Assembly: GCA_014728035.1 (NCBI GenBank)
Contig: WJMJ01000002.1
Span: forward strand, 860-64,859
Source: Promethearchaeota archaeon
GTDB taxonomy: Archaea; Asgardarchaeota; Thorarchaeia; Thorarchaeales; Thorarchaeaceae
Direction: 5' to 3'
Length of the DNA stretch: 64,000 nucleotides
Below, in pieces: positions 26,533 to 29,539 of this stretch. The position numbers and the translations under genes were made by a program. Under the pieces are notes generated by a model. It was not told the DNA's origin and searched no databases. It saw only the letters and a program-made list of their open reading frames with translations. Within the stretch, counting starts at the first letter, position 1. Every line of letters begins with the position of its first letter.

Positions 26533-28092
26533 TTGATAGAAGAGAAGATACTAGTAATGGATTATGGTGGTCAATACACACACCTAATAGCTAGAAGGTG
26601 TAGGGAGCTTGGAGTCTACGCAGAGATTATCACAAAAGACACACGTCTGATTGATAAGGTCTTACATGGAGTGAAAGGGATAATCTTGTCAGGAGGGCCT
26701 CGAACCGCTACAAAAGAAGATATTGGACCTCCATTTATTACAAATCTAGAAAAATTGAGAAATGAAAAAATTCCTATTCTAGGTATCTGTTTCGGTCATC
26801 AGATACTGGCATATGCTAGTGGAGCTAAGCTTGCAGCTGGGGGAAATCCTGAGTACGGAGAAATGAAAATCAAAGTAGTTAGTGACACACCATTGTTGTC
26901 AGGACTAGAAAGAGAACAAAAAGTTTGGATGAGTCATTCAGATGAAGTCTGTGAACTACCAGAATCACTGACAGCATTGGCTGAAAGTGGAGATGATCAT
27001 ATTGCTTCCTTTGCCAGTAAAGACAACTTGGTATTTGGAGTTCAATTTCACCCAGAAGTCACACATACTCAAAATGGGATGACCATCCTTAGGGCATTCC
27101 TTAGGGATATCTGTAACTATGAGAAAGAATGGACTCCCGGAAAAGAGATAGATATCATAGTTGAAGAGATTAGAAAAACAGTAGGTAATGGGAGAGTTCT
27201 GATGGGGACTAGTGGAGGAGTCGATTCTACTGTCGCTGCATACCTGATTAAACAAGCTATCGGAGACCGTCTCTATTGTGTATTTGTTGATAATGGACTT
27301 CTCAGACACAACGAACGCGAAGAGGTAGAGAAAGCTTTCGATGAGATGGGTTTTGAACACTTCGTCACAGTTGATGCTGCTGATGAATTCCTAGAGAAAC
27401 TAGAAGGTGTTGTCGATCCAGAACAAAAAAGAAAGGTTATCGCTGAAACCTTCATCAGAGTGTTTGAACGCAAAGCAAAAGAATTGGAAGCAGAATACGG
27501 TGAGTTTGCCTTCCTTGGACAGGGTACAATCTATCCAGATAGAGTTGAGAGTGCAGCAACGGGGAAGGAAACCTCAGTGATAAAGAGTCATCATAATGTT
27601 ACTTTACCAGACTGGATGAAAATGAGTCTTGTAGAACCTCTCAAGGACTTGTATAAGGATGAAGTTCGAAAAGTTGGTGTGAAACTTAGCATCCCCTCAA
27701 AGATGATTCGTAGACAACCATTTCCGGGCCCTTCACTTGCAATCAGAATTGGAGGACCAGTTACAAGAGAACAATTGGAAATTCTTCGCCATGCAGATAG
27801 GATACTCCAAGAAGAATTAGAACAGGATAATTCCTATGATACCATTTGGCAATCTTTCTGTGTATTACTTCCTGTACGATCAGTTGGAGTCATGGGAGAT
27901 GAACGTACATATGATCAGGCAGCAGTGATTCGAGTCGTCGAGAGTAAAGACGCAATGACAGCATCAGTAAGTAGATTGGAATGGGATGTGTTACTAAAAA
28001 TAGCCTCACGAATCGCTAATCAAGTTAGAGGGATTAATCGAGTAGTCTACGATGTGACATCGAAACCACCAGGTACAATTGAATGGTATTGA
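26533..28092 (+). CDS. guaA: GMP synthase (glutamine-hydrolysing), fused GATase + ATP-pyrophosphatase
   Basis: TTG start is needed to keep the first beta-strand ILVMDYGGQYT. GICFGHQ nucleophile, P-loop SGGVDSTV, and C-terminal KPPGTIEWY. Confidence 0.95.
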   Translation: MIEEKILVMDYGGQYTHLIARRCRELGVYAEIITKDTRLIDKVLHGVKGIILSGGPRTATKEDIGPPFITNLEKLRNEKIPILGICFGHQILAYASGAKLAAGGNPEYGEMKIKVVSDTPLLSGLEREQKVWMSHSDEVCELPESLTALAESGDDHIASFASKDNLVFGVQFHPEVTHTQNGMTILRAFLRDICNYEKEWTPGKEIDIIVEEIRKTVGNGRVLMGTSGGVDSTVAAYLIKQAIGDRLYCVFVDNGLLRHNEREEVEKAFDEMGFEHFVTVDAADEFLEKLEGVVDPEQKRKVIAETFIRVFERKAKELEAEYGEFAFLGQGTIYPDRVESAATGKETSVIKSHHNVTLPDWMKMSLVEPLKDLYKDEVRKVGVKLSIPSKMIRRQPFPGPSLAIRIGGPVTREQLEILRHADRILQEELEQDNSYDTIWQSFCVLLPVRSVGVMGDERTYDQAAVIRVVESKDAMTASVSRLEWDVLLKIASRIANQVRGINRVVYDVTSKPPGTIEWY

Positions 28093-28138
28093 AAATACCA
28101 CCATTCCGAATCCTTAAATTTCATCATTCATATTAATT

Positions 28139-28317
28139 CGTGCGCCTTATGCGCTAATGTTAGAGTTACTGCCATTTCCCTAACATTACGTGGTGCATCA
28201 TAGTCCGAGCTGTTATGGCTATAATCGGATCAAGAACAAAGTAGTCTTATGACAACTTCTTGACCCAGGGTGTTCCTTTCTCCGTTAAGGGTTCCTGGGC
28301 GCACCACGACATGGTGC
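28139..28317. ncRNA. Candidate structured RNA (family and strand unresolved): hairpin plus a compact four-way junction, with alternative pairings
   Basis: Perfect helices read directly. 28155-28163/28180-28188 (9 bp). 28189-28196/28301-28308 (8 bp) encloses three abutting hairpins: 28204-28208/28225-28229, 28230-28236/28257-28263 and 28264-28269/28294-28299. Competing helices are 28140-28146/28298-28304 and 28301-28306/28312-28317. The stems are G+C-rich within an AT-rich 301-nt non-coding gap. Confidence 0.4.
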
Positions 28318-28393
28318 TAATTATGAAGAAACTAAACAGACCCGTTTGGTATCCATAAGGTATAAGCATACATATGCATGAAGTGAAGATACA

Positions 28394-29539
28394 ATGAGAG
28401 GAAAGCTAGTATATCCATATACAGACCTATTACTTCAATACGAATTCAAAAAAGACCATCCGTTGAAACCTGATAGATTGAAGCTAACCTATCAACTGTC
28501 CAAAGAGTTAGGACTTCTTGACAAAGTGAAGGAAATTGAGCCAAAGCTAGCTACCAGAAAAGAATTGGAGTTATTTCATACCTCTGAATTCATAGATGCG
28601 GTTGTAAGTTGTGGAAAAGATGAATGCACAAGTATGAGATACGGATTAGGAACAGCAGATAATCCGATCTTTCCACGGATTTACGATGCCGCTGCGAGAT
28701 ATGTAGGAGCCACTCTTGATGGAATGAAGGAGATCATTGCAGGAGCTTCAAACGCATTTTGTATATCGGGTGGACTTCATCATGCTCAAAGAAGCCGGGC
28801 CTCCGGTTTTTGTATATTCAACGATATTGCCATTTCCATCATGCACTTGCTTCGAAAGAAAGATTGTAAAGTTCTTTATTTGGATATTGATGCTCACCAC
28901 GGAGATGGAGTCCAAAATGCATTCTACAGATCAAAAGATGTTCTAACAATATCATTACATCAATCTGGAAAGACGTTATTCCCTGGAACTGGAAATGTGT
29001 ACGAAGCAGGTGGAGCAGAGGGTGTGGGGTACTCTGTTAATGTTCCACTTATTCCTGGAGCTGGCACACCGGAGCTTAAACGAGTACTAAATGAAGTAGT
29101 CATACCACTATTCGAATCATTCAAACCGAATCTATTAGTAACACAGCTAGGTGTTGATGGACACTTCATGGATCCATTAGCTCATTTAGCCTATACCACA
29201 CATGGATATGAGTTTGTTATCAATAAAATGAAAGAACTTACCGGAGAATACTGTGACATTGGATGGCTTGCAGTGGGTGGAGGAGGATATCATCCAGTCA
29301 ATGTGGCAAGGTTATGGACCCTATTTCTTGCATCAATGTTGGATGAAAAAGTCCCAGAGAAACTATCGGATGAATTCATCACTGCGTGTAATTCGATGGG
29401 TTATGATCGTTGTCCGCTGACGATGCATGACCAGAATGATGTGGAACAGATGTATTACTCAAGGCAAGATGTGACTTTAGATTTAGACAGACAAATCAGG
29501 AAAGTAGAGGAAATTATTTTTCCTTACCACGGTCTCTAA
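28394..29539 (+). CDS. Histone deacetylase-family (class I/AcuC-like) Zn-dependent deacetylase
   Basis: GGLHHAQRSRASGFCIFND, DIDAHHGDG and GGGGY motifs. Confidence 0.9.
   Translation: MRGKLVYPYTDLLLQYEFKKDHPLKPDRLKLTYQLSKELGLLDKVKEIEPKLATRKELELFHTSEFIDAVVSCGKDECTSMRYGLGTADNPIFPRIYDAAARYVGATLDGMKEIIAGASNAFCISGGLHHAQRSRASGFCIFNDIAISIMHLLRKKDCKVLYLDIDAHHGDGVQNAFYRSKDVLTISLHQSGKTLFPGTGNVYEAGGAEGVGYSVNVPLIPGAGTPELKRVLNEVVIPLFESFKPNLLVTQLGVDGHFMDPLAHLAYTTHGYEFVINKMKELTGEYCDIGWLAVGGGGYHPVNVARLWTLFLASMLDEKVPEKLSDEFITACNSMGYDRCPLTMHDQNDVEQMYYSRQDVTLDLDRQIRKVEEIIFPYHGL

Follow-up and report, generated by a model that had tools for sequence, protein, structure and literature searches.

A candidate structured RNA gene between guaA and a deacetylase gene in one genus of Thorarchaeota

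The spacer between guaA and an HDAC-family gene in a Thorarchaeota (Asgard) MAG (4.3 Mb, 173 contigs) probably holds a separate gene on the plus strand, encoding a structured non-coding RNA of a new family found in a single Thorarchaeota genus. The RNA would be ~170 nt long (roughly 28142-28311, plus strand), with two stacked 5' hairpins, P0 and H1, leading directly into a cloverleaf-like four-way junction, and it would probably be transcribed from its own archaeal promoter, a CCTTAAAT box ~30 nt upstream. All coordinates refer to the window, by which we mean the whole 64,000-nt stretch of DNA that was analysed.

Upstream of the element, guaA (26533-28092, plus strand; Pfam GATase, NAD_synthase, GMP_synt_C) encodes a fused GATase and GMP synthase and is the last gene of a purine cluster. 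Downstream lies the HDAC-family gene, which is AcuC-like (28394-29539, plus strand; Pfam Hist_deacetyl, E = 1.9e-87) and has an ortholog, with 62-72% identity, in each of the 40 family genomes searched. The two genes are syntenic in the genus's only other species (G001, hereafter the sister species) and at 12 further family loci. The gap between them measures 301 nt (28093-28393) and is the largest between ORFs at 25-31 kb; a preliminary description of this DNA had called it the longest non-coding stretch in this part of the window. The segment singled out in that description stops 77 nt before the deacetylase ATG at 28394; the conserved part of the element ends 83 nt upstream of the same ATG and lies on the same strand as the gene. 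The centre of the spacer had also been called visibly richer in G+C than its flanks. It is richer, but the rise is modest (0.45-0.49 versus 0.32-0.39), and the RNA itself, at ~0.46, lies below the 0.55-0.65 reached by other stable RNAs of this genome.

A conserved multi-helix fold

All five helices read in the preliminary description are present, and the same parts can be followed in the sister species. The probable 5' end of the RNA is the P0 hairpin (28142-28154), which has a 4-bp GCGC/GCGC stem here and 6 bp, including one G·U, in the sister species by way of a 2-nt insertion. P0 is followed by H1 (28155-28188), a 9-bp stem (28155-63/28180-88) with a 16-nt apical loop; the stem is intact in both species despite one change from A-U to G·U, and 14 of the 16 loop positions are identical. 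The two species share an identical run of 29 nt that extends from the H1 loop across the 5' strand of the closing helix. That strand (28189-28196) forms 8 bp with 28301-28308 and is invariant.

The closing helix encloses three arms, which had been described as abutting with linkers of zero nt; the four-way junction stands, with hairpin linkers of 0-1 nt. Before the first of these arms comes J1 (28197-28202), an A/U-rich junction strand that is variable, with 6 nt here and 8 nt in the sister species. Arm 2 (28203-28230) consists of a 5-6 bp stem (28204-08/28225-29), a 5-nt bulge and a 3-bp tip; every pair is kept, and a U·G here is C-G in the sister species. Arm 3 (28231-28262), which corresponds to the hairpin described at 28230-36/28257-63, combines a conserved 5-bp base with a variable tip. 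An A-U pair in this arm is G-C in the sister species, a double compensatory change, and the tip is unrelated in sequence between the species, yet forms a hairpin in both. Arm 4 (28264-28299), built on the helix described at 28264-69/28294-99, consists of a 7-bp stem that an internal loop separates from a 5-bp stem, followed by a loop that includes UCCGUU; all 12 of its pairs are kept, three of them varying one-sidedly through G·U. The element closes with the 3' strand of the closing helix (28301-08) and a conserved ACA (28300-28311 in all, 12 of 12 positions identical). Conservation stops here, and the tail or spacer that follows (28312-28352), which has no T-run, shows 44% identity with the sister species over 41 nt.

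The plus strand folds at -60.2 kcal/mol (z = -3.7), and none of 200 dinucleotide shuffles folds as well. The minus strand is equivalent in energy (z = -3.9), so folding energy alone cannot choose the strand. Folded on its own, the ortholog of the sister species forms P0, H1 and the four-way junction (z = -5.0), and RNAalifold, applied to the whole spacer together with the ortholog, returns the same architecture.

The sister species gave the sole BLAST match among 40 relatives, with 79% identity over 28100-28322 and the identical arrangement of guaA, spacer and deacetylase gene. The flanking proteins of the two species are 87-88% identical and their coding DNA 75-77%, with identity at four-fold degenerate sites of only 36% in the deacetylase gene (136 sites) and 26% in guaA (145 sites). 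The silent sites of the flanking genes are saturated between the two species. Against this background, identity is 30% over the first 10 nt past the guaA stop, rises to 100% in a 17-nt box (28103-19), and is 89% and 100% in the two H1 stem strands, 88% in the H1 loop, and 100% in both strands of the closing helix plus the ACA. It is 50% in J1, 79% in arm 2, 75% in arm 4 and 47% in arm 3, with its unrelated tip, and it returns to 100% in a 15-nt box (28353-67). Such conserved segments, set against saturated silent sites, place the element under purifying selection, with sharp edges at about 28103 and 28311.

The pattern of change within the helices points the same way. In a model of 42 pairs, all 84 cells hold standard pairs, a share that falls to 36-43% if the partners are shifted by 1-3 columns. 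Thirty-six of the 42 pairs are invariant, five change on one side (Watson-Crick to G·U or the reverse) and one changes on both (A-U to G-C), so that covariation rests on two sequences and six varying pairs. A shuffle control for covariation (252/500) is powerless with two rows, and the argument from pairing therefore rests on the fact that every observed change keeps pairing. The wobble pairs also identify the functional strand as the plus strand, since on the minus strand they would be A·C mismatches. The compact multi-helix RNA with a four-way junction that had been proposed is thus borne out, being conserved against saturated neutral sites with changes that keep pairing, and conservation and pair-preserving changes likewise support the suggestion that it stands out as a stable ncRNA would. 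In this sample of two species, the structure is under selection, with pair-preserving changes.

Transcription signals and distribution

The 17-nt box upstream of the element, ATTCCGAATCCTTAAAT (28103-28119, plus strand), is identical at 17 of 17 positions in the sister species and is a candidate BRE/TATA promoter of the RNA. Within it, the fully conserved CCTTAAAT lies at -30 to -23 from the first pair of P0. Similar boxes lie upstream of tRNA genes of this genome (e.g., GCTTAAAA, GCTTTTAT and CCTTTTAT), and boxes of a comparable kind precede the SRP and RNase P RNA genes, at about -33 to -25. The motif [CG]CTT[AT]4, which fits CCTTAAAT, precedes 5 of 17 genes for tRNA, SRP or RNase P RNA, with 0.018 expected per region; it was chosen post hoc, after inspection of the same upstream regions. 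A second box, CCATAAGGTATAAGC (28353-28367, plus strand), is identical at 15 of 15 positions, lies between the element and the deacetylase gene, 27-41 nt before the ATG, and is a candidate promoter of that gene; in other genera, the spacers of 49-109 nt carry A/T-rich boxes at comparable distances from it. The presence of an upstream box of its own, together with a separate box for the deacetylase gene, supports a separate transcription unit for the element and disfavours a dedicated deacetylase leader.

A T-rich run, as found 3' of this genome's tRNA, SRP and RNase P genes, is missing 3' of the element. Processing may generate the 3' end of the RNA, or the transcript may extend into the deacetylase gene. 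Nor is there a T-run between guaA and the element, so guaA transcripts may read into it.

At 11 syntenic guaA-deacetylase loci of other genera, the spacer is 49-109 nt long, unrelated in sequence and devoid of the element. These short spacers indicate that the genus of this genome gained ~200 nt, and the element is thus a genus-specific addition of that length. No terminal inverted repeats or target duplications were found at its boundaries. The element is single copy in both genomes: BLAST and a covariance model found no paralog in its own genome, and none of the five other copies there of an 11-mer from the H1 loop is a hairpin loop. In one locus of another genus (G048, L029:1092-1451), the guaA-deacetylase spacer is 411 nt long and contains a minus-strand ORF of 119 aa and no RNA; what has been inserted into this spacer differs from genus to genus.

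Wider searches returned nothing beyond the sister species. The covariance model, R1, found no other member in 86 family and 151 phylum genomes and, with filters off, no further ortholog in 24 syntenic loci and five metagenome loci. A degenerate 29-nt pattern gave no further ortholog in metagenome contigs, and an element 20-mer searched against genome contigs returned the sister species' record only. Metagenome loci found by way of the deacetylase reached 77% identity at best, in a different context and without the RNA. A search of 5.8 billion proteins yielded no deacetylase at identity between 73% and 100%; the names of the homologous proteins fit a thorarchaeote. The protein cluster look-up gave the sister species' protein alone. 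Among viral contigs, four 18-mer matches fall in GC-rich contigs and were judged to be chance.

Known RNA families and other readings of the spacer

No Rfam family reaches its gathering score anywhere in the window, and the element alone has no match at E <= 10. A permissive Rfam search of 600 nt returned one weak match, to IS605-orfB-II on the minus strand (28075-28202; E = 0.41, with 20.9 bits where the gathering score is 88), which is gone when the element is searched alone and is not reproduced in the ortholog; the permissive search of the ortholog returned only RgsA, at E = 9.4.

In its general shape, the element resembles tRNAs and tRNA-like cloverleaves (YrlA Y RNAs, tmRNA), in which a terminal helix of 7-8 bp closes three hairpins with very short linkers, and it shares with tRNA genes the single-copy state and the type of upstream box. 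Unlike tRNA, it lacks a T-loop or D-loop consensus and a conserved anticodon loop; its arms are 26-36 nt long, its first junction strand has 6-8 nt, and it carries two extra 5' hairpins. A tRNA was rejected on several grounds. ARAGORN calls none in the window and, run on the whole genome with introns allowed, leaves the locus uncalled, and no Rfam tRNA match appears at E <= 10. Moreover, arm 4 has no TTCRA, there is no D-loop GG, and arm 3 has loops of unlike sequence and length in the two species. SRP RNA and RNase P RNA were set aside because the genome's copies lie elsewhere, on C25 and C151.

The conserved ACA at 28309-11, directly 3' of the closing helix, is what an H/ACA RNA would have. 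An H/ACA guide was nevertheless rejected, as a four-way junction sits above the stem, the sole long single strand, J1, is variable, and no tandem G·A was seen by eye. Resemblances to a K-turn, an H/ACA pocket and a hairpin ribozyme were likewise checked by eye and dropped. A micropeptide was excluded, the short plus-strand frames of the spacer not being conserved in the sister species. No convincing base-pairing partner emerged for the H1 loop: the best candidate sites, an exact match of 14 nt within a coding region and a wobble-containing match of 16 nt, both lie away from gene starts.

There is also a likeness to orphan, lineage-specific ncRNA genes such as Hgc of AT-rich archaea and candidates of the raiA-motif type, which are intergenic, compact and G+C-richer than their flanks, with a promoter-like box of their own and no family match. 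The element differs from them in its far narrower distribution (one genus, two species), its lower G+C and its lack of a T-run terminator. As a single-copy element with no Rfam match and no tRNA call, in a genome whose SRP and RNase P RNAs lie elsewhere, it would represent a new family.

The preliminary description had suggested a riboswitch-like leader with mutually exclusive pairings, and a cis-acting 5' leader of the deacetylase gene, whether riboswitch-like or protein-binding, would be transcribed from the distal promoter and read through into that gene. The same strand, the short distance to the ATG and the lack of a T-run terminator before the deacetylase gene favour such a leader, as does the existence of the alternative pairings (28140-46/28298-304 and 28301-06/28312-17), which the MFE fold of the element uses in this species. 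That fold (-60.2 kcal/mol) compares with -57.7 kcal/mol for the conserved junction fold. In the sister species, however, the competing helices decay, one having 5 bp instead of 7 and the other 4 instead of 6, their end pairs lost without compensation, and the MFE fold is the plain four-way junction, which leaves the riboswitch unsupported. The 41-nt linker to the deacetylase box is only 44% conserved, that conserved promoter-like box (28353-67) stands between element and ATG, and the orthologous genes at the 11 syntenic loci do without the element. Nor did any known riboswitch class match. The aptamers that come nearest, SAM-I, yybP-ykoY Mn2+ and NiCo, likewise form a four-way junction of ~120 nt ahead of a gene that runs in the same direction; the element differs in having no Rfam match and no conserved expression platform, in the box that separates it from the gene, and in not recurring across taxa upstream of the same or related genes (11 syntenic spacers, 86 family and 151 phylum genomes). 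We regard a deacetylase leader as unlikely.

Alternatively, the element could belong to the 3'-UTR of guaA or the purine operon, as a stabiliser against 3' exonucleases or a tRNA-like processing signal that sets the end of the mRNA, possibly releasing an sRNA derived from the 3'-UTR. Roughly 50 nt, with no T-run among them, separate it from the guaA stop, and the cloverleaf-like shape with its 8-bp closing helix would suit such a role. Against this, the fully conserved promoter-like box of 17 nt precedes the element, conservation is lacking over the 10 nt that directly follow the stop, RNase P or RNase Z would find no T-loop or D-loop signature to recognise, and other genera end guaA without the element; a 3'-UTR element is unlikely here. 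A domesticated or relic piece of a mobile element, e.g., a gene-less mini-IS with a TnpB/IscB-type guide-RNA scaffold, is improbable as well. The ~200-nt insertion is about the size of the mini-IS elements that are common in this genome, has a promoter-like box, and loses conservation sharply after the scaffold, like a transposon right end; the weak IS605-orfB-II match (Rfam RF02998 for IS605-orfB-I/II) and the different insert in another genus would also fit, and TnpB omega-RNA is similar in size, multi-hairpin, and has a sharp 3' conservation boundary of the same kind. However, the match lies on the strand opposite to the one indicated by the wobble pairs, covers only P0/H1 and the end of guaA, and is absent from the ortholog. 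In addition, the neighbourhood contains no tnpB gene, each of the two genomes has one copy only, and neither the mini-IS repeat nor the 3' flanks of the four TnpB-like genes (see below) resemble the element. A decaying relic could not keep stems 89-100% identical once neutral sites are saturated. This reading concerns origin and is compatible with an RNA gene, for which a domesticated origin is possible. Finally, stems nearly invariant in sequence are what protein-binding inverted repeats in the DNA would show, and chance palindromes may be put in the same class; yet the observed changes leave RNA pairing intact through G·U, and do so for a single strand, all five nested helices are kept, the tip of arm 3 has been replaced in sequence and is still a hairpin, and the z-scores are -3.7 and -5.0. 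A DNA-level explanation is very hard to credit.

Several other features of this genome were recorded alongside. Four TnpB-like genes were located, and a repeat of ~65 nt or more, with ~29 dispersed copies that are often at contig ends, matches the 3' flank of one of them (C25:~209620-210293, with copies at, e.g., C121:67504-67569 and C31:20178-20244), consistent with a mini-IS carrying a guide-RNA scaffold. This mini-IS607/TnpB scaffold repeat was rejected as a relative of the element, its consensus being unrelated. GC-rich intergenic peaks are mostly tRNA genes of 100-190 nt with one to several short introns (examples are C9:72541-72730, C25:86951-87140 and C61:28021-28190), and ARAGORN finds only 35 tRNAs in the whole assembly. 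Unlike these scattered, intron-laden archaeal genes, two clusters lack introns, with 13 tRNA genes on C26:11286-25121 and five on C161:38326-39366; these may come from virus or contaminant contigs, the estimate of contamination for the assembly being 8.5%. ARAGORN also calls a tRNA-Pyl with anticodon CUA at C51:15308-15405, and three GC-rich intergenic regions (C70:19351-19530, C70:57641-57850 and C131:6881-7170) contain a common three-hairpin block.

Possible role and meaning

We therefore return to a separate gene for a structured RNA, probably added in one genus to a spacer that is short in related genera. Our committed guess at its function, an inference from the fold and its conservation, is that the RNA acts in trans as a stable scaffold. 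The rigid junction would serve as a protein-binding body, and the invariant H1 loop could be a recognition surface for a protein or for another RNA. A bolder proposal, which we put forward tentatively as a possible but doubtful one, is that the RNA gene is young, having arisen in the ancestor of one Asgard genus or been captured by it, possibly from a tRNA-like or mobile-element scaffold, and that purifying selection acted on it from the start, more strongly than on the DNA of the neighbouring enzymes.

In the sister genome, the element is mis-annotated as a 79-residue N-terminal extension of the deacetylase. The AcuC/HDAC protein there (TXT55343.1) was deposited as 460 aa, and the conserved ATG gives 381 aa, as in the present genome. 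At this locus (L009:1429-1665, minus strand), the frame is open upstream to a GTG, and the 79-residue extension runs through the RNA element.

Among prokaryotes, the Asgard archaea are most closely related to eukaryotes, and to our knowledge their RNA inventory is almost unexplored. The element adds to that inventory a well-defined structured RNA present in no catalogue. As it occurs in one genus and is absent from the same spacer of its relatives, it offers a rare datable gain of an RNA gene with a visible insertion site. If the young-gene proposal were true, it would imply a new lineage-specific RNA-protein machine.
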